Assembly (NCBI RefSeq): GCF_041083635.1
Contig: NZ_JBFPHB010000013.1
Span: forward strand, 19,529 to 83,528
Source: Leptothrix ochracea
Lineage (GTDB): Bacteria > Pseudomonadota > Gammaproteobacteria > Burkholderiales > Burkholderiaceae_C
Length of the DNA: 64,000 bases
Direction: 5' to 3'
Part shown: piece after piece, positions 9,168-64,000 of the stretch
Layout of the letters: each line of letters starts with the position of its first letter
Numbering within the stretch: position 1 is the first letter of the stretch
Translations under genes and position numbers: made by a program
The notes under the pieces: generated by a model
Seen by the model: the letters and a program-made list of their open reading frames with translations, nothing else
What the model was told of the DNA's origin: nothing
Databases searched by the model: none

Positions 9168-10073
9168 TCAAGCCACGCCATGGGAACGCAGCCATGCGAG
9201 GCTACGCCGCCAACCGTCCTCGGCCGCTTCTTTGCGATAACTCGGGCGGTAATCCGCGTGAAAAGCGTGAGGGGCATCAGGGTAAACCACGAAATCGGAG
9301 GCTTGGGCCGCTTTGGTCCCCTTTGCTAAGCCTAACTTCATTTGTTCGACCTGCGCCAACGGAATACCGACATCCTGCCCGCCATACAACCCCAGGACCG
9401 GCGCAAACAACTTGGCCGCAACATCCAGCGGATGCACCGGTGAGCGCTCATTCACCGGACCCGTCAAACGGCCATACCAAGCCACCGCCGCTTTGAGACG
9501 CGGGTTATGTGCGGCATAAAGCCAACTGATGCGCCCGCCCCAGCAAAAGCCGCTCACCCCCAAGCGATTCAGATCGCCGCCTTGGGTCGTGGCCCAAGCC
9601 GCGCAAGCGTCCAAATCAGCCAACACTTGAGCATCGGGCACTTTCGAAACCACCTCGCTCATCAGCTTGGCGATTTCGCCATAGCTGCCCGCATCGCCTT
9701 GACGGGCGAAAAGTTCAGGGGCCACCACCAAATAGCCTTGGTGGGCCAAGCGGCGTGCCACATCCGCGATGTACGCATGGACGCCGAATATTTCACTCGC
9801 CAAAAGCACCACCGGCCATGGCCCGGGACCTGTCGGCACTGCACGATAGGCCGGCATTTGGAAATCAGCCACCGCGATCGTCACCTCTCCTGCCACCAAA
9901 CCACGGGTATCGGTATGCTGGGCGGTCTGCGCCAAAACGGGCAAAACAGCCGCTGCAAAACCAACACCTAATCCAGTGCGCACAAAATCGCGCCTGTTGT
10001 AATTCTGTGACGGCGTCGGTGCGTCAATTTCCAAGGGACGGGCATCATCACGATCCATAACGATTTCTTTCAT
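9168..10073 (-). CDS. Dienelactone hydrolase family protein
   Basis: EIFGV, GFCWGG nucleophile elbow, HAFHADYRPSY; Tat-like RRDF N-terminus. Confidence 0.9.
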   Translation of the reverse strand: MKEIVMDRDDARPLEIDAPTPSQNYNRRDFVRTGLGVGFAAAVLPVLAQTAQHTDTRGLVAGEVTIAVADFQMPAYRAVPTGPGPWPVVLLASEIFGVHAYIADVARRLAHQGYLVVAPELFARQGDAGSYGEIAKLMSEVVSKVPDAQVLADLDACAAWATTQGGDLNRLGVSGFCWGGRISWLYAAHNPRLKAAVAWYGRLTGPVNERSPVHPLDVAAKLFAPVLGLYGGQDVGIPLAQVEQMKLGLAKGTKAAQASDFVVYPDAPHAFHADYRPSYRKEAAEDGWRRSLAWLRSHGVA

Positions 10074-52691: not shown

Positions 52692-54989
52692 TCACTGAAT
52701 CACACCATGGATGACGCCAAAGCCACCGCTGACACTGGGCTGAGAGCCGATGTAGAAGGGATCGGCGGCACTGCTTGGGTCATGCAGGCTGGCGGCTGAG
52801 GGCAACGTCTGCGGGTTCAACGCCAGCCCGGCACAAGCACTCGGCGTGGTCTTGCCCAGACGAACTTCCGCGTTCAGTGCCTTCACGATCAGCGGCGTGC
52901 TGGCAGCACCCGCCATGCCCGGCAAAGTCATCGTGGCGCCGTCCGTCAACGCAAAGACCGGCACAAAACGCACGTTGCCGCCATCACAGGGGGCCGGCTG
53001 GTTATCCACCGGATTCACACAACTCCCGGGAATGCCAAACAGGTTGCCAAAACCGTTGAACTGCAACTGAATGGTTTTGCCCACCCAAACCCCGGTGGGG
53101 TCATCCGTGGCACTGATTGGGTACTGGATGTTGCGTGGCGGGTCGAAACTCATCACTTGGGCATTGCTGGTGCGCGTCAGCCATGTGGATTGATTCCACG
53201 ACTGCACACCCGTTTCCCACGTGTAGTACGTGGCGGGTGCTTGCGGTTCACAAACCGTTGCCGACATACCCATGTAGGGCGGTGTGCATGACGTCAGCGG
53301 TGCGGTGAACAACCGACCCGTCATCACGCCCCCCATGTATTGGGACGAGAAGTGACTGGGGTTGGTGTCCGTCACCGGAGCCCCCGACTCTTTCAGACCC
53401 GAGCCGTCAAAGGTGTAATGCACCGACTGCGCACCGTACATCCACTGCTGCCCGGTACCGCTGCCAAAAGGCCCATTCATGCCGGTGAACGCAGCCAGCG
53501 AGGCAGCCGTGGGGCAATTGCTCATGCAGTAAAAATCGGTGGGGGCACCGGCACTGCCAGGCAACACTACGTTTTGGGTGTAGTACGTCACCGCATCCGT
53601 CCCCACATGGGCCACGCCGGTCGAAGGCACGTTCACATTGCCACCCACCGCATCCGACCACCCCGAAAGCGGCATACCCGCCAAGGCAGCCGCGCCGATC
53701 TTGGCAGCTGGAGTGACCGAGGCCACCACACACCCCGTGGGGTTGCAACTCTGCTTGCCCGTCACATAAACCGCCGCAGTGGTTTTGTCCCAATGGGCCT
53801 GCCATGTGTTGAAGCCTGTGACCGACGGGTTATCCGTCAGGCTGGCTTGCGGGTTCGTGGGATCACTCAGGTTGCCCCAGAAAAACATCGGGATACCGTC
53901 CACCGCATCCAGCGTGGTGCTGCCTTGACTCCACTGTGTCAGCTTACCGCTGACCTTGGAGAGGCTGTAGACGTTGGTGTTGTTGGGGCGCTGATCGGTG
54001 ATGGTGTAGCCGTTGACCAAGCCGTCGGGCAAAGCCCCCAGATCCACCCCTTGGAGGTTGAGTCCCCAGTAGCCGGCATAACCGTAGACCTTGCTGCCGT
54101 CAGCCGTCTTGGTCGCCACGATCGGAAAGCCTGGATGGACCGTATCGACCCGCGCACCCGTGACAGCGTCGTACGTGCCGTAGCTCCATACGGATTTGTT
54201 CGCCTGAGCGATGGAACGGTTGAAACACACATCGTTGGCGGTGTCGCTGCGCCGAAAGAGCGCACTGTCATAGGCGAAATCAAAACTTGTGCCATTGACC
54301 GCCATGGTCCCAGCACCCGACGTGGTGGACGCCGCCGCCATGGTCAAACCGTTAACCCGCAAAGGATTGCCCGGCTCGGTGTTGCGCTCGAAGTAACTGA
54401 TGGCCCCGGCGGACGAGTCGATAAAGCCATTGAACATTTGCAGCCCACCCGACTGACCCGCGTAGTCGAGGCGAAACACCCCATACGGCGGCACATCGGT
54501 CGGCGACTGGCTGGCCGCAACACGCACATCCACCGTCACGGGCATGCCGTTGCCGTTGTTGAAGCTCAACCAAACCTTGGCGATCATCGGCGCGCTGTTG
54601 CTGGCCCGAGAAACGTTGACCACCGCATTCATATAGGACGGCGTGGCCTCGGCTGCCGAAGACGTTGCCGTGGAGTTGCTGGCGTTGGCACGCTTGGACG
54701 AGTCGCACTTGTTCTGATCCACCAAAGCGCTGTAGAGCACACTCACACTGCCATCGGCAGCAGCAGTGCCCTTTTGGTCCAGCATCTCGGCTGGGCGCAT
54801 CGCGTTCATGATGCAAAGCACCATGTTGAGCTGATTGACCCCATCCGAGGTGGCGTCTTGGACATAGACGTTTTGGGGATCGGTGTAGTACGGCGAGGCG
54901 GTATCGGCAGGTGCCGCCATCAAGGGCGAGGCCAGCCCCAACAAAGCCACCGCAGACGCCACACGGGTAAGACGCAGCTTCATGATCAT
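52692..54989 (-). CDS. Large secreted Cys-rich hypothetical protein (765 aa)
   Basis: Sec signal MIMKLRLTRVASAVALLGLASPLMA; 12 Cys; beta-strand-rich T/S/G/N composition. Confidence 0.85.
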   Translation of the reverse strand: MIMKLRLTRVASAVALLGLASPLMAAPADTASPYYTDPQNVYVQDATSDGVNQLNMVLCIMNAMRPAEMLDQKGTAAADGSVSVLYSALVDQNKCDSSKRANASNSTATSSAAEATPSYMNAVVNVSRASNSAPMIAKVWLSFNNGNGMPVTVDVRVAASQSPTDVPPYGVFRLDYAGQSGGLQMFNGFIDSSAGAISYFERNTEPGNPLRVNGLTMAAASTTSGAGTMAVNGTSFDFAYDSALFRRSDTANDVCFNRSIAQANKSVWSYGTYDAVTGARVDTVHPGFPIVATKTADGSKVYGYAGYWGLNLQGVDLGALPDGLVNGYTITDQRPNNTNVYSLSKVSGKLTQWSQGSTTLDAVDGIPMFFWGNLSDPTNPQASLTDNPSVTGFNTWQAHWDKTTAAVYVTGKQSCNPTGCVVASVTPAAKIGAAALAGMPLSGWSDAVGGNVNVPSTGVAHVGTDAVTYYTQNVVLPGSAGAPTDFYCMSNCPTAASLAAFTGMNGPFGSGTGQQWMYGAQSVHYTFDGSGLKESGAPVTDTNPSHFSSQYMGGVMTGRLFTAPLTSCTPPYMGMSATVCEPQAPATYYTWETGVQSWNQSTWLTRTSNAQVMSFDPPRNIQYPISATDDPTGVWVGKTIQLQFNGFGNLFGIPGSCVNPVDNQPAPCDGGNVRFVPVFALTDGATMTLPGMAGAASTPLIVKALNAEVRLGKTTPSACAGLALNPQTLPSAASLHDPSSAADPFYIGSQPSVSGGFGVIHGVIQ

Positions 54990-54995
54990 GCCCCT

Positions 54996-55169
54996 TCAGT
55001 GGGTGGTGGCTGTCACCACCGAGACACTGCCCGGCATGCCCACACCTTTGACGGTGCTGGTGTTCGTCGTCCCGCCTCCAGAGGAAGAACCACCCGAAGA
55101 CCCGCCGCCACAAGCTGCAAGCCACGGCAACCCCATCGCCAAAACCCAAACGATCAGCAATTTGTTCAT
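54996..55169 (-). CDS. 57-aa lipoprotein with Gly/Ser tether
   Basis: GAAGGAG SD, lipobox LAA-C20, GGGSSGGSSSGGG linker, C-terminal GVGMPGSVSVVTA. Confidence 0.85.
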   Translation of the reverse strand: MNKLLIVWVLAMGLPWLAACGGGSSGGSSSGGGTTNTSTVKGVGMPGSVSVVTATTH

Positions 55170-55436
55170 GGTGACTCCTTCAGAAAACGTCAAGGCCACA
55201 CTCACGGTCCCTTGTAGCAGCCTTGGCCTTTTTCAACGGAGTATCCGAGCCGACTTAGACTTGCATCAACAAGGCCCCGACATGGGACTTTTCAAGCCAC
55301 CACGGAAAGCGCACGCTTAACAGTTTTGGGGCCACTTTCACCCGCCTGTCCATGCACCACATCGAAAACGGGTCGATATCCTCCCTCATGAATCGCCTGG
55401 CCAGTCATGTCGACTTTCAACACGGACCCCACATGC

Positions 55437-56810
55437 TCAATCGGGCTTGCCTTCTAGGGTTTTCAAACGCCGATACAAGGTCCGCTCACTGACGCCTAAA
55501 CGCTGGGCCAGTTCGGCACGGCTACCGCGATGCGCCAAGACTTCAGCGCGCAAAAGATCGCGGCTGAGATCGTGCAAGGAGCGTGGCGGGACGGCTGCTT
55601 CGGCGGGTGGCACGGTGCTGGGCGAAGCGGGTGGGGGGCTCACCGCTTCACGGGCAGCGCGACTGAACTCAGGTGTCAGGGCTTCTTCAACGTGGTGCGG
55701 CTCCAGCACCGGACCATCACAGAGCAAGCTGGCGCGCTCAAGCAAGTTGCGCAATTCGCGCACATTGCCGGGAAAATCATAGGCCGACAGCAGTTCGAGC
55801 GTGGCGGGAGCCAGCGTCACCGGCCCATCGCGCCGCAGGCGTGCCAGCAATGCGGGGACCAGCAGGGCCAGATCCTCACGACGTTCACGCAGCGGCGGCA
55901 AGTGGATCGGAAAGGTACTGAGCCGGAAATAGAGATCGGAGCGAAACAGATTCTGCGAAGCCATGTCGCGCAGATCACGATGCGTGGCGGAGATGACCCG
56001 AATATCGGCGTGACGCCACTCCGTCGAACCAACCCGGCGGTACGTGCCGGATTCAAGCAAGCGCAGCAACTTGACCTGCATCGGCAACGGAATCTCGCCG
56101 ACTTCGTCGAGAAACAGCGTGCCCCCGCTCGCTGATTCCACCAGACCTTGCTTTTGATGGGTGGCCCCGGTGAAGGAGCCTCGCTCGTGACCGAAAAGCT
56201 CGCTCTCAAACAAATGTTCGGGCAAGCTGGTGCAGTCCAGCACCACCAGCGGCTTGTGTGCCCGGCGGCTGGCGGCATGCACCGCACGCGCCACCAATTC
56301 TTTGCCCGTGCCCGACTCCCCTTGGAGCAACACCGTGGCCTCGCTCGGGGCCACGCGGGCCACCTTTTGCAACATGCGCTGGAAAGCCGGGGCACGCCCC
56401 ACCAGCTCCCATCCAGCTGCCGCTGCGGTCGCTGACGACACGGTGCGCACGGCTTCCATTTTTTCGACAAAGTACGCCATCTCGCCTTCGGCATTGCGCA
56501 AGGGCAACAACTCAATGTTGACGTAGGCCTCGCCCTTGGGCGTGTGGTGCAAATGCAAGACGCGCTCACGCTGTCCCGAACTACGGGCCTTGGCCAAAGG
56601 GCAACATTCACCCGCTTGATCGCAGGGCACGCTGAAGTGGTGCGAAACCTCGTAGCACGTCCGGCCCACCACACTGCCTTCGGGACTGAACTGCTTGCGA
56701 TACGCCGCGTTGGCCGCAAGGATGCGGTACTGGCGATCAAACAAGATATGCGGCTCGGCGAGCCCTTCTAGGTATGACACCAACTCGGGCAACAACTTCA
56801 CGCCAGGCAT
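55437..56810 (-). CDS. FisR-type PAS / sigma54 AAA+ / Fis-HTH activator
   Basis: [40 protein letters not shown]; PAS Cys52/63/69/70. Confidence 0.9.
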
Positions 56811-56840
56811 CTGACACCTCTTTTCATGGGTCGCCGATTG

Positions 56841-56875
56841 TGTCAGAGCACTGCCATAACTGTCAGTGAGCGTCA
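56841..56875 (+). promoter_or_regulatory. Candidate activator enhancer (phased TGYCA repeats)
   Basis: TGTCA 56841, TGCCA 56852, TGTCA 56861, CGTCA 56871. Confidence 0.6.
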
Positions 56876-56993
56876 GTAAAGCCATCCCCTGGATGCAACA
56901 AATCGCCCCCCTCGGGGGGGCTCCTTGAGGCTTAAACGTGCATAAATGCCTCGACGAAGGGGCGACGCCCCACTTTTGGACCTCATACACGGC

Positions 56994-57008
56994 TGGCATG
57001 GTTCTTGG
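56994..57008 (+). promoter_or_regulatory. sigma54-like promoter of the cyd operon
   Basis: TGGCATG-GTTC-TTGG: good -24 box, correct spacing, -12 C replaced by G. Confidence 0.6.
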
Positions 57009-57040
57009 AATACATAGGGTATTCACGCAAAGCATCTGCC

Positions 57041-57190
57041 ATGTCACCCAACCTCTCGCACGACCCGCACCACGCCCCAAAGCCAGTGCGCCAACGCCTC
57101 AGCCTATCCCTGAGCAGCGAACTAACCCTGATCATCCTCATCAAGCTCGTCGCACTCTGGATGCTTTGGGCCCTGACAAGGAGTGCATGA
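57041..57190 (+). CDS. CydP-like small membrane protein (49 aa)
   Basis: Single TM ELTLIILIKLVALWMLW ending 1 nt before the cydA ATG. Confidence 0.65.
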   Translation: MSPNLSHDPHHAPKPVRQRLSLSLSSELTLIILIKLVALWMLWALTRSA

Positions 57191-57191
57191 C

Positions 57192-58739
57192 ATGTCTGAC
57201 CAACTTGTGGATGTGTCACGGCTGCAATTCGCCGTCACCGCGCTTTATCACTTCCTGTTTGTGCCCTTGACCATCGGCATGACATGGATGCTGGTCATCA
57301 TGGAAAGCGTTTACGTCATGACCGGCCAAGTGGTTTGGAAGGACATGACGCGCTTTTGGGGCAAGTTGTTCGGCATCAACTTCGCCTTGGGCGTGACCAC
57401 CGGCATCACGATGGAGTTTCAGTTCGGCACCAACTGGGCTTACTACTCGCACTATGTGGGTGATGTCTTCGGCGCACCGCTGGCCATCGAAGGGCTGATG
57501 GCCTTCTTCCTCGAATCGACTTTCATCGGTCTGTTTTTCTTCGGCTGGGACCGTCTCGCGCGCACCCAACATTTGTTGGTGACCATCCTGATGGCGCTGG
57601 GCACCAATCTGTCCGCGCTGTGGATTCTGATCGCCAATGGCTGGATGCAAAACCCGGTCGGGGCTGAGTTCAGCTGGCAGACCATGCGCATGGAAATGGT
57701 CGATTTCTGGGCCGTGCTCTTCAACCCGGATGCTCAAGCGAAGTTTGTGCACACCGTCTCGGCCGGCTACGTGACCGGTGCGATGTTCGTGCTCTCGATC
57801 TCGTCGTGGTACTTGCTCAAAGGCCAAGACGTGGCCTTTGCCCGACGCAGCTTCCGCGTGGCCTCCGCCTTCGGTCTGGCCTCGGTGTGCTCGGTGATCG
57901 TGCTGGGCGATGAGTCCGGCTACACCGTGGGCGAAGCCCAGCAAACCAAGATGGCCGCGATCGAAGCCATGTGGGACACCGAACCCGCGCCAGCAGCTTT
58001 CAACCTGATCGCTTGGCCCAACGAGGCCGAGATGAAAAACGACTGGGCGATCGAAATTCCGTGGGTGATGGGGCTGATCGGCACGCGCTCCATCCACAAG
58101 GAAATTCCTGGCATCAAAGAACTGATCGCCCGCAACCGCACCCGCATCGTCTCGGGCATCGAAGCCGTCAAGGCACTGGACACGCTGCGCCACGATCGCA
58201 GCCACCGAGAAGCGGAGTCCGTCCTCAAGCAGCATCAAGCCAATCTCGGCTTCGGTTTGCTGATGCGCAAATATGTCAAGTCGATGGCGGAGATCACCCC
58301 CGCGCTGATCGACCAAGCGGCCCGCGACACCATCCCCAAGGTCACACCGATGTTCTGGGGCTTCCGTGCCATGGTCGGTTTGGGCATGGGCATGCTGCTG
58401 CTTTTTGCGACCGCGTTCTGGTCCACGCTCAAGGTGCGCTGCGGTGAACAACGCTGGTTGCTGCGCTGGGCCCTGCTGATGCTGCCCGCCCCTTGGCTGG
58501 CGTGTGAGTTGGGCTGGTTTGTGGCGGAGTATGGCCGCCAACCGTGGACGATCTACGGCGTGCTGCCCACGCACCTTTCGGTGTCAAGCATCAGTGTCGA
58601 GAGCGTCTATCGCTCTTTGGCGGGCTTTGTCGCCTTCTACACGGTGCTGCTGATCATCGAAATGGGTTTGATGATTCGCTTTGCTCGCCTCGGTCCCGGC
58701 AGTCTCGGTACCGGCCGCTACGCCAACGAAACCCATTGA
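57192..58739 (+). CDS. cydA: Cytochrome bd ubiquinol oxidase subunit I (long Q-loop)
   Basis: YHFLFVP, EFQFGTNW, KFVHT, KMAAIE, FRAMVG, GWFVAEYGRQPW. Confidence 0.97.
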   Translation: MSDQLVDVSRLQFAVTALYHFLFVPLTIGMTWMLVIMESVYVMTGQVVWKDMTRFWGKLFGINFALGVTTGITMEFQFGTNWAYYSHYVGDVFGAPLAIEGLMAFFLESTFIGLFFFGWDRLARTQHLLVTILMALGTNLSALWILIANGWMQNPVGAEFSWQTMRMEMVDFWAVLFNPDAQAKFVHTVSAGYVTGAMFVLSISSWYLLKGQDVAFARRSFRVASAFGLASVCSVIVLGDESGYTVGEAQQTKMAAIEAMWDTEPAPAAFNLIAWPNEAEMKNDWAIEIPWVMGLIGTRSIHKEIPGIKELIARNRTRIVSGIEAVKALDTLRHDRSHREAESVLKQHQANLGFGLLMRKYVKSMAEITPALIDQAARDTIPKVTPMFWGFRAMVGLGMGMLLLFATAFWSTLKVRCGEQRWLLRWALLMLPAPWLACELGWFVAEYGRQPWTIYGVLPTHLSVSSISVESVYRSLAGFVAFYTVLLIIEMGLMIRFARLGPGSLGTGRYANETH

Positions 58740-58752
58740 AGAAAGAGTCACC

Positions 58753-59892
58753 ATGCTTTTCGATTACGAAACCCTCAAGGTGATCTGGTGGCTGCTGGTG
58801 GGCCTGCTGCTGGTCGGTTTTGCCATCATGGACGGCCACGATATGGGCGTGGGCGCGCTGCTGCCCTTTGTTGGCCAAGGCGACGAGGAACGTCGTGTGG
58901 TCATCAACACCGTCGGCCCGCACTGGGACGGCAACCAAGTCTGGTTCATCACCGCCGGTGGCGCGCTCTTTGCCGCTTGGCCGCTGGTCTACGCCACCGC
59001 TTTTTCTGGTTTTTACTGGGCCATGCTGTCGGTCCTGTGGGCGCTGTTTTTGCGCCCCGTCGGCTTCGACTACCGCAGCAAGATCCATCACCCGCTCTGG
59101 CGTCAAACCTGGGACTGGGGTCTGTTCATCGGCGGGATCGTGCCCCCGCTGGTGTTTGGCATCGCCTTCGGCAACTTGCTGCAAGGGGTGCCCTTTTATT
59201 TCGATGACTTGCTGGTGTCGCACTACACCGGCAGCTTTGCCGACATGCTCAACCCCTTTGCCCTGCTGAGCGGCGGGGTGGCCTCGGCCATGATCATCCA
59301 GCATGGCGGCGTGTATTTGGCCCACCGCACCGAAGGTGATGTGCAGCGCCGATCTATGCGTGCAGCAAGCGTGGCGGGTGTGCTCTGTCTGATTTTGTTC
59401 GCAGGGGCCGGTTTGTGGCTGGAACGGATCCCCGGCTATGTGATCACGTCGGTGGTGGATACCGCTGCCCTGCCCGATCCGCTGAATAAAACGGTGATCC
59501 AGGTCGATGGGGCTTGGTTGAGCAACTTCCTGCACTGGCCGTGGCTGTGGCTGCTGCCCACCTTGACGTTTGCCGGCACAGGCCTTGCCATCGTGCTCGG
59601 CCAAGGGGGCCGCACAGGGTGGGCTTTTGTGGCCTCGTCGCTGTCCATGGCCGGCATCATCGGCACGGCCGGGGCCGCAATGTTCCCCTTTGTCATGCCC
59701 TCATCCACGCATCCGAACGCCAGCTTGACGGCGTGGGACAGTGTTTCCAGCCCGCTCACCCTCAGCATCATGCTGGTGGCCGCGGCTATTTTTATCCCGC
59801 TCATCGTCGTCTACACCAGTTGGGCGTATCGGGTGATGCGGGGCAAGGTCACGGTGGACCATATCCGCCGCAACGCTCACAGCGCCTATTGA
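58753..59892 (+). CDS. cydB: Cytochrome bd oxidase subunit II
   Basis: IMDGHDMG, GPHWDGNQVW, LRPVGFDYRSK, YTSWAY. Confidence 0.97.
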   Translation: MLFDYETLKVIWWLLVGLLLVGFAIMDGHDMGVGALLPFVGQGDEERRVVINTVGPHWDGNQVWFITAGGALFAAWPLVYATAFSGFYWAMLSVLWALFLRPVGFDYRSKIHHPLWRQTWDWGLFIGGIVPPLVFGIAFGNLLQGVPFYFDDLLVSHYTGSFADMLNPFALLSGGVASAMIIQHGGVYLAHRTEGDVQRRSMRAASVAGVLCLILFAGAGLWLERIPGYVITSVVDTAALPDPLNKTVIQVDGAWLSNFLHWPWLWLLPTLTFAGTGLAIVLGQGGRTGWAFVASSLSMAGIIGTAGAAMFPFVMPSSTHPNASLTAWDSVSSPLTLSIMLVAAAIFIPLIVVYTSWAYRVMRGKVTVDHIRRNAHSAY

Positions 59893-59917
59893 TTTATGGG
59901 GATACGGAGGGACTCTT

Positions 59918-59962
59918 ATGCAAAACACCCCTACGGTTTACGTTGATATCGACAAGCTTTGA
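59918..59962 (+). CDS. Possible 14-aa small ORF MQNTPTVYVDIDKL
   Basis: GGAGG 7 nt upstream of ATG in the 90-bp cydB-cydX gap. Confidence 0.35.
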   Translation: MQNTPTVYVDIDKL

Positions 59963-59982
59963 CGGTTCAAGAGGAGATTTTC

Positions 59983-60129
59983 ATGTGGTATTTCACCTGG
60001 ATACTGGGCGTCGGCTTTGCCGTCTTGCTGGCCATTCTCAACGCCATGTGGGGCGAACACGCACTGGCACGGAGCGAGAGTCATCGTCCCGATCCAGCAT
60101 CCGCTGACACGGACGGATCACACCCTTGA
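59983..60129 (+). CDS. cydX: Cytochrome bd small subunit CydX (48 aa)
   Basis: MWYFTWILG..AILNAMWGE; GAGGAG SD; too short for the ORF track. Confidence 0.93.
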   Translation: MWYFTWILGVGFAVLLAILNAMWGEHALARSESHRPDPASADTDGSHP

Positions 60130-60362
60130 ATCTGCTGGTCCTTGGGGGTGCGTGTGCCATCGCGCTGGTGGTCACGATTTACCCCCCTATGCTTGTGCAA
60201 AGCGACGGCCACGTGGATCATGTGCGCCTCGCTTTACTGATGTTGGCCATGAGCACCGGTTTTATCCGGGGCGTCGGCTATATCCCGAGCCACCGCTTCT
60301 GGCGGTGGCTTTTTTCGACACCGACTGCTTTGGCATGGCTGTTGCTGGCAGTCTGGTGGTGA
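60126..60362 (+). CDS. ybgE: cyd operon YbgE-family membrane protein
   Basis: GFIRGVGYIP..FWRWLFS; TTG start overlaps cydX stop. Confidence 0.8.
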   Translation: MNLLVLGGACAIALVVTIYPPMLVQSDGHVDHVRLALLMLAMSTGFIRGVGYIPSHRFWRWLFSTPTALAWLLLAVWW

Positions 60363-60396
60363 TTCCTTGACGGGCCTTGCCCTGAACATCCACACC

Positions 60397-61035
60397 ATGC
60401 CTGACGTCTACTTTCGCCAACTCTATGACGCTCATCACGGGGCCCTGACCTATGTCTTGGGCGAGACCGAACAAGGTGAGGCCATCGTGATTGATCCCTT
60501 GGCGCAGGACAGCGTGCTGCTCGGCGCCATGTTGCAGGAACAAGGTTTGCGTCTGCGCTGGGTCCTGCACACGCATTTGCACCACGGCTCAGAACGCCAA
60601 GGCCTCAAGGCAGGTCATGTCTACAGCCGACAAATCACCCGAGGCCTTCCGACAGCCCACATCCCCAAAGAAACCCGGCTGGTCGATCACAACGAGCTGA
60701 TTGCTTTTGGTCAAGAGCGCCTGCGTGTCATTGCGACACCCGGTCACACACCCAGTTCCATCAGTTTTCTGTGGCGGGACCGCTTGTTTTGTGGGGACGC
60801 GCTGCACTTGGGCGGCTGCCCACCATGCAATGATCCCAGCAGCGATGCTGGGGCCATGTATGACAGCGTGACCACACACCTGCTCACGCTGCCCGGTGAA
60901 ACGCTGGTGTTTCCAGGACACGATCTGGCGGGCCGTAGCGTCTCCACCATCGCCGAGGAGCGTCGCCGCAACAAAGCCTTTTCAGGCCAGTCGCGGGACG
61001 CCTTCATGAGCCTCAGTCCAGCATTTCCGGCTTAG
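60397..61035 (+). CDS. ETHE1-type persulfide dioxygenase-like MBL protein with degenerate motifs
   Basis: FRQLYD, IDPL, TPGHT, FCGDAL, FPGHD, STIAEE; HxHxDH reads HLHHGS. Confidence 0.8.
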   Translation: MPDVYFRQLYDAHHGALTYVLGETEQGEAIVIDPLAQDSVLLGAMLQEQGLRLRWVLHTHLHHGSERQGLKAGHVYSRQITRGLPTAHIPKETRLVDHNELIAFGQERLRVIATPGHTPSSISFLWRDRLFCGDALHLGGCPPCNDPSSDAGAMYDSVTTHLLTLPGETLVFPGHDLAGRSVSTIAEERRRNKAFSGQSRDAFMSLSPAFPA

Positions 61036-62680
61036 CCATCCACTCACGGCCCTTGAGCATCGCCTCCCAATACAAGGGCGGCATGATCCGTTCCTTGAGC
61101 CACCAAGCCAGCCGTGAGGGGCGAGTGCCGTCGAGCAACCAACTCGGGAAGCTCGGGGCAACCTTGCCACCATAGGTGAACTCAGCCAACACGATCTTGC
61201 CGCGCTCAACGGTCAACGGGCAAGAGCCGTAGCCATCGTAGCTTGCCGAAACTTTGCGACCCTCACGGTCAGCAAGCAGGTTCTCAGCCACGACCGGAGC
61301 TTGCTTACGCGCCGCCGCCGCCGTCTTGGCGTTGGGCGTTGAGCTCACGTCGCCGAGCGCAAAGATGTTGTTGTAACGACGATGACGCAGCGTGGTTTGA
61401 TCCACCTCCACCCAGCCCGCAGCATCGGCCAAGGGACTGACGCGGATGAAGTCTGGGGCCTGCTGTGGCGGGCAGACGTGAATCATGTCGAAGCTGCGCT
61501 CCACCGTGTCCTTGGTGCCATCCGCCTTGGTGCGGGTGAACACCGCTTTACGACCCGGGCCGTCAATGGCGGTCAGGTTGTGCGTGAAGTTGAGGTCCAC
61601 GTTGTAGCGCTTGATGTATTCCATCAAGGCCGGTACGTAGTCGGCCACGCCGAACAACGCTGGCCCAGCGGTCATGAAGGAGATGTTGATGTCCTTCAAA
61701 CGGCCCTGACGCAGCCAGTGGTCACCGGAGAGATACATCGCCTTTTGCGGTGCACCCGCGCACTTGATCGGCATGGTCGGCTGGGTGAACAGCGCCTTGC
61801 CCGATTTCAACTCCTGCACCAACTTCCACGTGTAGGGCGCCAAGTCATAGCGATAGTTGGAGGTCACACCATTGCGACCCAACGTATCGATCAGCCCCTC
61901 GATGCCGTTCCAGTTCAGCTTGATCCCTGGGCAGACCACGAGATGCTTGTATTTGACGATCCGGCAGCCATCCAAAATCAAGGCATCTTGCTCAGGCTCG
62001 AACGCCGCCACCGCAGCCTTGATCCAATGCACGCCCCGGGGCAAAACCGCGCCCATCTGACGAACAGTTTGTTCTGCGGTGAACACGCCGCCACCCACCA
62101 AGGTCCAACCCGGCTGGTAGTAATGAACATCGGCCGGATCAATCACGGCGATATCCAAATGACGATCGCGCGCCAGCAAGCTCGCCGCCACAGCCGCCCC
62201 CGCAGCACCGCCCCCCACGATCACAATGTCGTGACGGGCATCAGCCACATCCACCGGCGTCTTGCCACCGTTGGCGATCCGGCGCACCACGCCATGCATC
62301 TTGAAACCAGCTTGACTGGAGCGTTCCAAAATTTCTGGCAAAGGCGTCCTGCCGGCTTGCGACAAGGCCCACAGCGTGACAGTACGGGTACCCGTGCGGC
62401 AATAACCGAGCGTGGGCTTGGGCAAGGAGTCGAAGACCTTGCCAAATTCGACGGCATTCTCATCGCTGACCTTGCCGGACTCCACCGGCAGGTACACGGC
62501 CACCATGCCCAGAGCTTCGGCAGCGCGACTGATTTCCTTGAACAGCGGCTGATCCCCAGCTTCCCCGTCAGGACGATTGCAAACCACCGAGCGAAAGCCC
62601 AGCTTGTTCAGTTCAGCAAGGTCAGCCGGCTGGATTTGCGCGGTGACTGATAGCTCAGGCGTAAGGGCCCGGATTTCCAT
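61013..62680 (-). CDS. sqr: DUF442 (rhodanese-like) fused to type II sulfide:quinone oxidoreductase
   Basis: C34 (VCNRPDGE), C94 (YCRTGTR); GGGAAG, HYYQPGWTLVGGG, KCAGAPQK, YGSCPL. Confidence 0.93.
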   Translation of the reverse strand: MEIRALTPELSVTAQIQPADLAELNKLGFRSVVCNRPDGEAGDQPLFKEISRAAEALGMVAVYLPVESGKVSDENAVEFGKVFDSLPKPTLGYCRTGTRTVTLWALSQAGRTPLPEILERSSQAGFKMHGVVRRIANGGKTPVDVADARHDIVIVGGGAAGAAVAASLLARDRHLDIAVIDPADVHYYQPGWTLVGGGVFTAEQTVRQMGAVLPRGVHWIKAAVAAFEPEQDALILDGCRIVKYKHLVVCPGIKLNWNGIEGLIDTLGRNGVTSNYRYDLAPYTWKLVQELKSGKALFTQPTMPIKCAGAPQKAMYLSGDHWLRQGRLKDINISFMTAGPALFGVADYVPALMEYIKRYNVDLNFTHNLTAIDGPGRKAVFTRTKADGTKDTVERSFDMIHVCPPQQAPDFIRVSPLADAAGWVEVDQTTLRHRRYNNIFALGDVSSTPNAKTAAAARKQAPVVAENLLADREGRKVSASYDGYGSCPLTVERGKIVLAEFTYGGKVAPSFPSWLLDGTRPSRLAWWLKERIMPPLYWEAMLKGREWMAKPEMLD

Positions 62681-62757
62681 GACTGATTTCCCTAAAGAAG
62701 AGTGGAGACGCAAGAGAGTGACGGGGTTGAAGCTAGATGACAACCTTCTGATCTAGC

Positions 62758-62772
62758 TCAAGATTCGTGCCA
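62758..62772 (-). promoter_or_regulatory. sigma54-like promoter of sqr
   Basis: Minus strand TGGCACG-AATC-TTGA: perfect -24 box, -12 C replaced by A. Confidence 0.7.
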
Positions 62773-62868
62773 ACATCGACGACACCATTAGGCTGCGATT
62801 TTCATCACACATTCAGATTAGGTGCGTATCAATCGTTGCAAACCTTTGCGCGGTTCGCCCCAAACCCC

Positions 62869-62923
62869 TGCCAGCCATGTCATATCACTGCCAGTCCTTG
62901 GCATGAAATGGCACAAATTGGCA
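62869..62923. promoter_or_regulatory. Candidate symmetric (3+3) enhancer array between sqr and the TDT gene
   Basis: TGCCA 62869, TGTCA 62878, TGCCA 62889, then TGGCA 62899, 62909, 62919. Confidence 0.65.
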
Positions 62924-63010
62924 GTCTCGCTGCACCGCCTGCCTGCGCTTGTTGGTTTCGAACAAGACCCCATACCGGCACGAGGGTACCGCAGAGGGTA
63001 TTCTTTCACC

Positions 63011-64000
63011 ATGGCAAAAAACCCGACTCCTCTCAAATTTTTGGCCCCTGGCTGGTACGCCATCGTCATGGGCTTGGCTGGTTTATCGCTGGCATGGCAA
63101 CGCGCCACCCCCTTCATGGGCGAACAAGCCAACATGGTCGCATGGGCCCTTGGTGGCTTGGCCGTGGTCGTTTTTGCGGTCTTGGCACTCCTCACCGTGA
63201 TCCGTGGTCAACGCTATCCTGAGGCTTGGGCCGACGATCGCCGTCACCCGGTGCGCCACACGTTCATTGCCACCTTGCCCATCTCTATGTTGTTGCTGGC
63301 GACCGTGGCCGTGGCGTTGAACGGGGTGAGTGAACCCGCACGTTGGCTTTGGTGGATGGGCAGCCTCGGGCAGTTTGTCGTCTCGATTTGGGTGCTGGCT
63401 CGCTGGTGGCTCGGCCCGCAAGCGGGTGGCTTGGTCTGGGCCAGCGTCACCCCGGCTCTTTTGATTCCGATCGTCGGCAATGTGATCGCGCCCTTGGCGG
63501 GTGTCCCCTTGGGCCATACCGAGTGGGCGGCGGCGCAATTTGGCATTGGCTTGCTCTTTTGGCCGATCATCTTGGCCCTTCTCGTCATCCGCGTGGCGAT
63601 CCAAGGTTTGTGGCCTGAACGATTCATGCCAACGCTGTTCATTTTGATCGCCCCGCCAGGCGTTGGTGGGTTGGCCCTGCTGCAACTTGGCGCACCGAGT
63701 TTGGTGGGATGGGCGCTTTGGGGAATCGCCTTTTTCAGTTTTGTGTGGATCGCGACCCAGATGCCACGCATCACTGGCCTGCCCTTTTCGCCCATGCACT
63801 GGGCGATGTCGTTCCCAATGACCGCCTTGGTTGCCTTGACGTTGAAGCTGGCCACGCCCGGCAGCGGTATGGGTTTGCTGGGCATCACCTTGCTGGCGGC
63901 GACCTCCTTGATCGTCTTGAGCTTGGTCACCGCCACCATCCGGGGTTTGCGTGAGGGCACCCTCCTCGCTCCCGAGCAGATTGCCGTGATTCAGCCCACT
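63011..64000 (+). CDS. TDT (TehA/SLAC1) family anion transporter, 3' end off window
   Basis: Manual translation MAKNPTPLKFLAPGWYAIVMGLAGLSLAW..FIPIVGNV..WAMSFP; many TM helices. Confidence 0.85.
   Translation, partial: MAKNPTPLKFLAPGWYAIVMGLAGLSLAWQRATPFMGEQANMVAWALGGLAVVVFAVLALLTVIRGQRYPEAWADDRRHPVRHTFIATLPISMLLLATVAVALNGVSEPARWLWWMGSLGQFVVSIWVLARWWLGPQAGGLVWASVTPALLIPIVGNVIAPLAGVPLGHTEWAAAQFGIGLLFWPIILALLVIRVAIQGLWPERFMPTLFILIAPPGVGGLALLQLGAPSLVGWALWGIAFFSFVWIATQMPRITGLPFSPMHWAMSFPMTALVALTLKLATPGSGMGLLGITLLAATSLIVLSLVTATIRGLREGTLLAPEQIAVIQPT

Follow-up and report, generated by a model that had tools for sequence, protein, structure and literature searches.

The 64,000-nt stretch of Leptothrix ochracea DNA analysed here (contig NZ_JBFPHB010000013.1, assembly GCF_041083635.1), referred to as the window, contains at 55437-64000 a cytochrome bd operon that is divergent from the gene of a FisR-type sigma-54 activator and adjoins genes for sulfide oxidation. 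The locus is probably a FisR-family unit for the response to sulfide or sulfane sulfur, with two sigma-54 promoters and one activator. Comparison of sequences lends good support to the core of this reading, a predicted FisR sulfide regulon with a terminal oxidase among its members. The original prediction, made from the letters of the window, had placed the cyd operon under a FisR-type sigma-54 switch together with sqr and pdo, and this is supported in silico by the sensor cysteines of the activator, by a -24/-12 element before the operon and by the conservation of the layout. It is very likely that cyd is read from a FisR-type sigma-54 promoter in this locus.

All nine genes of the locus were found in the order and orientation first read, using Pfam, NCBIfam and phmmer against the PDB (Table 1). 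The fisR gene is divergent from cydP-cydA-cydB-cydX-ybgE-pdo*, a DUF442-sqr gene converges on this group, and a gene for a TDT transporter is divergent from sqr. The matches for CydA, CydB, CydX and YbgE occur in the order of a bd-I operon (cydABX-ybgE). The plus-strand genes from cydP to the MBL-fold gene (pdo*) have the close spacing of a single operon: cydA begins within the stop of cydP, cydA and cydB are 13 nt apart, the cydX stop overlaps the ybgE start, and the gap between ybgE and the MBL gene is 4-34 nt, depending on the MBL start chosen. A sequence scan gave a count of terminator-like sites in the region that is not above chance. The MBL gene and sqr overlap by 23 nt at 61013-61035, with no terminator between them. 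The overlap is 44 nt in L001, a metagenome contig which has the same gene order and a regulator 90% identical to that of the window. Transcription from the two candidate promoters, P_cyd and P_sqr, would collide or yield antisense RNA at this overlap.

The regulator is 99% identical to a protein from a Leptothrix ochracea metagenome-assembled genome. It consists of an N-terminal PAS-like sensor, an AAA+ domain (PF00158, 5.5e-67) and a Fis-type helix-turn-helix (PF02954, 3.5e-06), and its GAFTGA loop reads GSFTGA. According to a review, FisR senses reactive sulfur species via three conserved cysteines (PMC9774590). The comparison with the FisR of C. pinatubonensis was made by way of a syntenic locus (L084) on the second replicon of Cupriavidus metallidurans CH34. 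In this locus the gene of the closest relative of the window regulator faces away from a type II pdo and the sqr behind it, as in the arrangement published for Cupriavidus. Aligned end to end, the regulators share 52% identity, and Cys52, Cys63 and Cys70 in the window correspond to Cys53, Cys64 and Cys71 in C. metallidurans, which are said to be the residue numbers of the FisR sensor in Cupriavidus. The sensor-cysteine motif CYxVSH...PCDQAGExCP is shared by both proteins, and the three cysteines are invariant in both regulator alignments (A1 and A2). By every family feature seen at the sequence level, the regulator is a FisR-family sigma-54 activator, and we infer by analogy that it would respond to sulfide. 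The window regulator also has a fourth cysteine, Cys69, next to the sensor residue Cys70, where Ser, Thr or His is found in relatives. Three other matches were set aside. The Variovorax match in the plasmid collection is a PQQ/ped regulator, and the matches on a Polaromonas plasmid and in Halomonas are different activators, without cyd or sulfur genes.

P_cyd, the sigma-54-type element before cydP, has a perfect -24 (TGGCAY) and reads TTGG at -12, not TTGC. The window was scanned with TGGCAC-N5-TTGCA, two mismatches allowed; the total number of matches across the window was no more than chance, and among them are one before cydP (56994-57009) and one before sqr (62772-62757). The family motif TGGCAYG-N4-TTGR occurs three times in the 64 kb compared with 0.35 expected, and two of these occurrences are the sites before cydP and sqr. 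The third (9746-9760, minus strand, TGGCACGCCGCTTGG) is inside an open reading frame resembling a dienelactone hydrolase and is probably a chance match. A consensus scan gave no sigma-70-like site on the plus strand before cydP. The sole such site faces the regulator and overlaps the upstream half-sites. An Anr/FNR box is not visible in the spacer between the regulator and cydP. L001 keeps the upstream cluster and P_cyd of the window although the rest of the spacer has diverged. A near-perfect G+C palindrome with an unpaired centre base (GCCCCCCTCGGGGGGGC, 56905-56921) is located between the upstream sites and P_cyd; it is absent in L001.

Comparison of 31 cyd or CIO-like loci shows no conserved promoter directly before the MBL gene; the one locus with a match, L031, has a gap of 984 nt there. 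The MBL gene is therefore likely to be read from P_cyd through the cyd genes. The window itself has an internal sigma-54-like match before the MBL gene (60331-60346, TGGCATGGCTGTTGCT), which is not in L001 and was treated as chance.

The second candidate promoter, P_sqr, resembles a textbook member of the family, with the repeats, the palindrome, the IHF-like box and the promoter in order, and its -12 reads TTGA. The sqr upstream sites have the same pattern as the fisR-pdo2 spacer of C. metallidurans, and the SQR part of the fusion protein is 71% identical to the SQR of the pdo2-sqr operon of that strain. SQR matches PF07992 and falls below the cut-off of the NCBIfam type III model. The original prediction had included an exporter in the switch, and this part is not supported. 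The sigma-54-like match before the TDT gene (62919-62934) coincides with a TGGCAG half-site that belongs to the upstream sites of sqr; it is not conserved in L001 and was not accepted as a promoter. The TDT protein is proposed as a putative sulfite/thiosulfate exporter; it matches TIGR00816 (6.5e-36) with 124 bits against a cut-off of 237, the gene being incomplete in the window, and its orthologue in L001 has PF03595. A direct repeat, AGGGTA-N6-AGGGTA (62983-63000), lies just before the TDT start. The repeat is kept in L001, has no Rfam match and could serve another regulator.

The promoter layout is conserved in relatives. For this comparison, 80 related genome loci were gathered with the sensor domain as the probe, which are the best 80 of ~545+ genomes. 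Of the 32 loci in which cydA is the first divergent gene, 26 have the element TGGCA(C/T)G-N4-TTG(A/G/T) at a distance of 203-237 nt from cydA, immediately ahead of cydP. At the same position, four of the 32 have the canonical TGGCAC-N5-CTGCA and two have one-letter variants. A sigma-54-type element is present at the same position and on the same strand in 32/32 of these loci. The family element also occurs in 32 of the 34 loci that begin with the MBL side and in all four loci with low-identity CIO-like cydAB, and the opposite strand gave one match across all loci. The consensus of the 63 distinct sites is TGGCACG-NNT-CTTGATA. More distant relatives from metagenomes have full canonical GG-N10-GC promoters (e.g. 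TGGCACAAAAACTGCA and TGGCATGCGCCTTGCA) before cydA or cioA.

The sites upstream of the promoters are conserved as well. TGCCA/TGGCAG half-sites are located ~90-150 bp upstream of the -24 in nearly all loci. The pair TGCCA-N3-5-TGGCA is present in 27 of the 47 non-redundant spacers (0.05 expected), and the looser TGYCA-N3-5-TGRCA in 39 of the 47 (0.12 expected). A conserved box, CAAGTCATTGATTT(G/A)AAAC, between the upstream sites and the promoter appears to fit the IHF consensus in reverse. The fisR-pdo2 spacer of C. metallidurans contains TGCCA three times and TGCCA-N3-TGGCAG, followed by TGGCACGGGTTTTGAG 53 nt before pdo2. The chromid of Pseudoalteromonas xiamenensis has TGCCActtaTGACA and then TGGCATAGGACTTGTA before cydP, a layout that matches. 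The cyd promoters thus have their regulatory layout in common with the Cupriavidus-type fisR-pdo locus.

The adjacency of regulator and cyd is found in 32 of the 72 related genome loci that were classified and in 12 of the 36 more distant metagenome loci with enough flank. Among loci with at least 3.5 kb upstream, an oxidase is first in 29/62 genome loci (bd-I type cydAB in 25, CIO-like oxidase in 4) and in 16/36 of the more distant metagenome loci (12 and 4, respectively). A bd-type oxidase is therefore first in ~45% of FisR-family loci, mostly bd-I and in some cases CIO-like. Among the carriers are Sphaerotilus sulfidivorans (D-501, L012), Hydrogenophaga taeniospiralis (L003), Ideonella benzenivorans (B7, L068), Undibacterium (with sp. 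WLX3042, L063), Glaciimonas, Ottowia thiooxydans and Acidovorax benzenivorans. In most of these the genes continue on one strand as cydPAB-(Rieske)-cydX-ybgE-MBL-SQR. In Pseudoalteromonas the regulator faces cydP-A-B-X-ybgE alone, and two TARA contigs read cioAB-PDO2-DUF442-SQR, with a canonical PDO2 and a single canonical sigma-54 promoter at the head. The synteny search thus finds the arrangement recurring in Beta- and Gammaproteobacteria with two oxidase types; judged from these loci it is widespread, and neither a product of chance nor a one-off insertion. The original prediction had regarded the cyd cassette as inserted between fisR and pdo. With ~45% of loci carrying an oxidase first, this is not a peculiarity of the present genome. 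In a neighbour-joining tree of the regulators (no support values), cyd-bearing and cyd-less loci are interleaved, which suggests that the cassette was gained or lost many times, so that the present arrangement may reflect either insertion here or loss elsewhere.

Several of the related loci differ in other ways. Ten of them (L009, L017, L036, L039, L069, L118, L123, L144, L155 and L160) have a second kind of CydAB, short, CIO-like and with 26-35% identity, in the same slot and behind the same promoter. The metagenome contigs L141 and L148 have a third mode of linkage, in which the regulator is divergent from PDO2-DUF442-SQR and cydA-cydB is behind the regulator on its strand. A PetA-like Rieske iron-sulfur protein of ~205 amino acids (CTHLGC...CPCHGS) is embedded in L012 (6238-6858), in L003 (3738-4358) and in many MBL-first loci (e.g. 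L018, L020, L026 and L113-L117). Its gene is either between cydB and cydX or right behind the sigma-54 promoter before the MBL gene, and the window is without it. In Hydrogenophaga the Rieske protein is accompanied by a multihaem cytochrome c and a cytochrome b.

The MBL protein encoded behind ybgE is PDO-like but, judged by its motifs, is filed apart from true PDOs. With phmmer it matches the PDB entries 9rhq (3e-46), 4ysb (M. xanthus PDO, 1.5e-35), 4chl (human ETHE1, 2.7e-27) and 5ve3 (1.9e-24). The asterisk that the gene was first given (pdo*) is justified, as the canonical PDO motif THxHxDH is replaced by THLHHG in the window; L001 has THGHTP at this position, and ~60 relatives have THEHD(A/D), so that the pair from the window and L001 is without even the Asp of the relatives. 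The window protein retains the His of TPGH and the Asp of GDAL. Nearly all of these regulators have such an MBL partner beside them, with 37-45% identity to the window protein and 73% in L001. This regulator-linked family may be a distinct class of enzyme and not a standard persulfide dioxygenase.

The open reading frame of 49 amino acids at the head of the operon has no match to the CydP family models (PF28236 and NCBIfam CydP). Its likeness to the CydP of relatives is confined to the transmembrane core, LIKLVALxMLW, and the conserved tail VRDxRVxVD at the C-terminus is missing.

A number of observations weigh against a FisR-type sulfide switch for cyd. The P_cyd of the window, with TTGG at -12, appears to be the weakest and most eroded member of the family. 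Its upstream sites are three half-sites in the same orientation with no clean palindrome, and its IHF-like box falls short of the full IHF consensus and is displaced, ~20 nt more distant from the -24 than that of relatives. Only 7 of the 63 family promoters have the canonical C at -12, so the use of sigma-54 rests on analogy with Cupriavidus. Ten cyd loci (Pseudoalteromonas and nine from metagenomes) have no PDO or SQR gene within 9 kb, and the signal might therefore not be sulfide everywhere. The FisR of A. baumannii is without the sensor cysteines (PMC7315123), which suggests that sensing may differ across the family. Contigs of three iron-mat metatranscriptomes cover the whole island, so that island RNA is present in situ; being unstranded and environmental, these contigs are uninformative on transcription starts, strands and sulfide dependence. 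Some of them span the divergent spacers, suggesting DNA carry-over or merged transcripts, and their depth is 5-10x higher over 60104-64000 (ybgE-MBL-sqr-TDT) than over cydAB. This step in depth might stem from a further transcription start beyond cydB or from antisense transcripts that read through from sqr.

The degenerate sites before cydP and the difference in RNA depth between cydAB and MBL-sqr would fit an operon controlled mainly by oxygen or redox state through an unrecognised promoter, with the activator acting on sqr only, and perhaps on the MBL gene, and the adjacency being meaningless for cyd. In E. coli the bd operon is controlled by ArcA and FNR. The cydPABX operon of B. cenocepacia depends on Anr/RoxSR (PMC11742914), and Leptothrix ochracea, as a microaerophile, needs a high-affinity oxidase regardless. 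Control by oxygen is nevertheless unlikely to be the main one here. The plus strand before cydP has neither a sigma-70-like site nor an Anr box. Every cyd locus has a -24/-12 element at a constant distance from cydP or cydA, essentially never on the opposite strand. The MBL gene, for which no conserved promoter is seen, would have to be read from P_cyd through the cyd genes, and the same slot is occupied by two unrelated oxidase subfamilies.

It is likewise improbable that the activator drives cyd from the sigma-54 promoter in response to another signal, a thiol-reactive or respiratory stress from which bd oxidases give protection, such as cyanide, nitric oxide, peroxide or the redox state of the quinones, with the sulfur genes being passengers in some lineages. 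The ten loci in which the regulator is paired with cyd and no PDO or SQR gene is near would be explained in this way, cysteine-based sensors are often promiscuous, and the partner MBL family is without the canonical PDO motif. However, the Cupriavidus regulator has the three cysteines and their motif as well, and its orthologue in C. pinatubonensis reportedly detects reactive sulfur species through three cysteines (PMC9774590). Most loci have an SQR gene, a PDO-type gene or both within the same unit, and the TARA contigs string cioAB, canonical PDO2 and DUF442-SQR behind a single sigma-54 promoter. A neutral shuffling of genes in Burkholderiales without shared function, which the interleaving of cyd-containing and cyd-less loci on the regulator tree might suggest as a sign of frequent rearrangement, is effectively refuted by the comparative data and is highly improbable, since both Beta- and Gammaproteobacteria have the arrangement, with either of two oxidase types, and the oxidase genes invariably follow the sigma-54 promoter and precede the other genes.

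The full mechanism of the proposed FisR-type switch, including sulfide as the signal, is considered likely, with more caution than the reading of cyd from a sigma-54 promoter. Sulfane sulfur would modify the three sensor cysteines of the activator, as suggested by C. pinatubonensis FisR. The activator would bind to the TGYCA-type sites ~100-150 bp upstream of each promoter and, helped by a bend at the IHF-like box, would spend ATP to open the sigma-54 RNA polymerase at P_cyd and P_sqr. Transcription from P_cyd would then yield a single operon of cydP-cydA-cydB-cydX-ybgE and the PDO-like gene, and transcription from P_sqr the DUF442-SQR gene. SQR would pass the electrons of sulfide to quinone and produce the persulfide inducer, which would result in positive feedback. 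The quinol would be reoxidised by the sulfide-insensitive bd oxidase while the haem-copper oxidases are poisoned, and the sulfur would be disposed of by the PDO-like enzyme and the TDT transporter. In this scheme the in vivo dependence on sigma-54, the chemistry of the MBL protein and the substrate of the TDT protein are predicted, as are the signal and the binding of the activator to DNA.

The FisR-pdo-sqr system has reportedly been described in C. pinatubonensis JMP134 (Li et al. 2017, Mol Microbiol 105:373, as cited in PMC7315123 and PMC9774590). Compared via C. metallidurans CH34, the Cupriavidus system and the window are alike in the domain order of the activator, the three sensor cysteines, the position of the activator gene divergent from a sigma-54 promoter, the promoter form (TGGCACG-N4-TTGAG), the TGCCA/TGGCAG upstream sites and the orthologous SQR (71%). 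They differ in the genes behind the promoter. The target operon in Cupriavidus is pdo2-sqr only, whereas the first genes in the window are cydP-A-B-X-ybgE. The dioxygenase of Cupriavidus is a type II PDO, whereas that of the window is a short ETHE1-like protein without HxHxDH. In addition, sqr in the window is fused to DUF442 and stands apart from the operon, convergent with it and behind a candidate promoter of its own.

Cytochrome bd sustains respiration in sulfide, and sulfide induces cydAB in A. baumannii, E. coli and M. tuberculosis (PMC7315123). In A. baumannii, FisR activates a pdo-sqr-exporter set and sulfide raises cydAB (Walsh et al. 2020, PMC7315123). A coupling of SQR and CydAB through the quinone pool has already been proposed for this organism (PMC7315123). 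The idea of SQR feeding a bd oxidase through quinone, which was part of the original prediction, is therefore known as physiology, and what is new is the direct wiring. The cydAB genes of A. baumannii (A1S_1433-1434) are unlinked to fisR (A1S_1707) and their inducer pathway is unassigned, whereas cyd in the window adjoins the regulator. The FisR of A. baumannii lacks the sensor cysteines and its exporter is TauE, whereas the window has the cysteines and a TDT protein.

The name cydP comes from the cydPABX operon of B. cenocepacia H111 (PMC9104464, PMC11742914), which is, like that of the window, a bd-I operon headed by a small cydP, as is typical of Burkholderiales. The B. cenocepacia operon responds to low oxygen through Anr and RoxS/RoxR, and neither a sigma-54 activator nor sulfur genes are reported for it. 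The repressor-based sulfide regulons of CstR (cst operon, S. aureus), SqrR (Rhodobacter) and BigR (PMC9774590, PMC7315123) are similar in that a persulfide-sensing regulator controls SQR, PDO and an exporter. They act by derepression at sigma-70 promoters and have no terminal oxidase in the operon of the sensor, whereas the window would use sigma-54 activation. In the literature searched, from which subscription journals were largely outside, a FisR-type activator or a sigma-54 promoter tied to a cyd operon was not found; the architecture, first noted as not known to be described, is thus provisionally new.

If the proposed switch is correct, it would supply a direct regulator for the induction of cytochrome bd by sulfide, which was reported in A. 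baumannii without an assigned regulator (PMC7315123). It would also be a new mode of cyd regulation that does not depend on oxygen sensors, via a class of sigma-54 promoter with TTGA at -12, and it would widen the FisR regulon. The electron input (SQR) and output (bd oxidase) would rise together, with the oxidase read from the same promoter as the sulfur-disposal genes. The locus is thus a candidate for a direct route from sulfide sensing to protected respiration in a large group of environmental bacteria. The new part is the wiring from sensor to oxidase; the physiological idea is known, which limits the surprise. A wider proposal is evenly balanced in our view: FisR-family activators may be a widespread direct switch from sulfide to respiration in Beta- and Gammaproteobacteria, in which a sulfide-insensitive quinol oxidase (bd-I with CydP, or a CIO-like enzyme), often with a dedicated Rieske protein, heads the sulfide-oxidation operon and, in some lineages, the oxidase is the sole target. 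The partner MBL family and the embedded Rieske protein are flagged as candidates of interest.

Table 1. Genes and candidate regulatory elements of the locus in the window.
Feature	Position	Strand	Length	Remarks
Sigma-54 activator, FisR-type	55437..56810	-	457 aa	PAS_4 + Sigma54_activat (5.5e-67) + HTH_8
Candidate sigma-70-like promoter of the regulator gene, weak	56837..56866	-		CTGACA-18-CACAAT; consensus scan only
Degenerate putative upstream activator sites of cyd	56841..56866			TGTCA-N7-TGCCA-N4-TGTCA; kept in L001
Weak counterpart of the family IHF-like box	56925..56937	+		TTGAGGCTTAAAC; family box CAAGTCATTGATTTRAAAC; by-eye alignment of 50 intergenic regions
P_cyd, candidate sigma-54-type -24/-12 element	56994..57009	+		TGGCATGGTTCTTGGA; 32 nt before cydP ATG
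cydP-like, small membrane protein	57041..57190	+	49 aa	Without Pfam or NCBIfam match
cydA, cytochrome bd-I subunit I	57192..58739	+	515 aa	PF01654 (Cyt_bd_oxida_I) 4.4e-173
cydB, subunit II	58753..59892	+	379 aa	PF02322 4.6e-102
cydX	59983..60129	+		PF08173 2.7e-15; TIGR02106 above cut-off
ybgE	60126..60362	+		PF09600 3.9e-18
MBL-fold, ETHE1/persulfide-dioxygenase-like	60367..61035 (likely start ATG 60397)	+		PDB phmmer matches
DUF442 (sulfurtransferase-like)-SQR fusion	61013..62680	-	555 aa	Pfam + NCBIfam
P_sqr, candidate sigma-54-type promoter	62757..62772	-		TGGCACGAATCTTGAG; exact family-consensus match; L001 has TGGCATGAATCTTGAG
Putative IHF-like box between P_sqr and upstream sites	62827..62843	-		By comparison with family box
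Putative sqr upstream sites, canonical FisR-type	62868..62926			Three direct TGCCA repeats, then TGCCA-N5-TGGCAG
TDT/SLAC1-family anion transporter	63011..64000	+		Runs past window end; TIGR00816, below cut-off

The DNA of the region is matched by metagenomes from iron mats and freshwater. A recent horizontal transfer was considered and rejected, as the base composition is 0.55-0.65 GC throughout with no island-like shift. Rfam gave no match within 55300-64000. The region directly downstream of the regulator (52692-55205) contains an open reading frame for a lipoprotein-like protein of 69 amino acids and one for a secreted protein of 765 amino acids of unknown family. In L001 their place is taken by UbiH-like and DsbC-like genes, so the synteny stops at the 3' end of the regulator gene.

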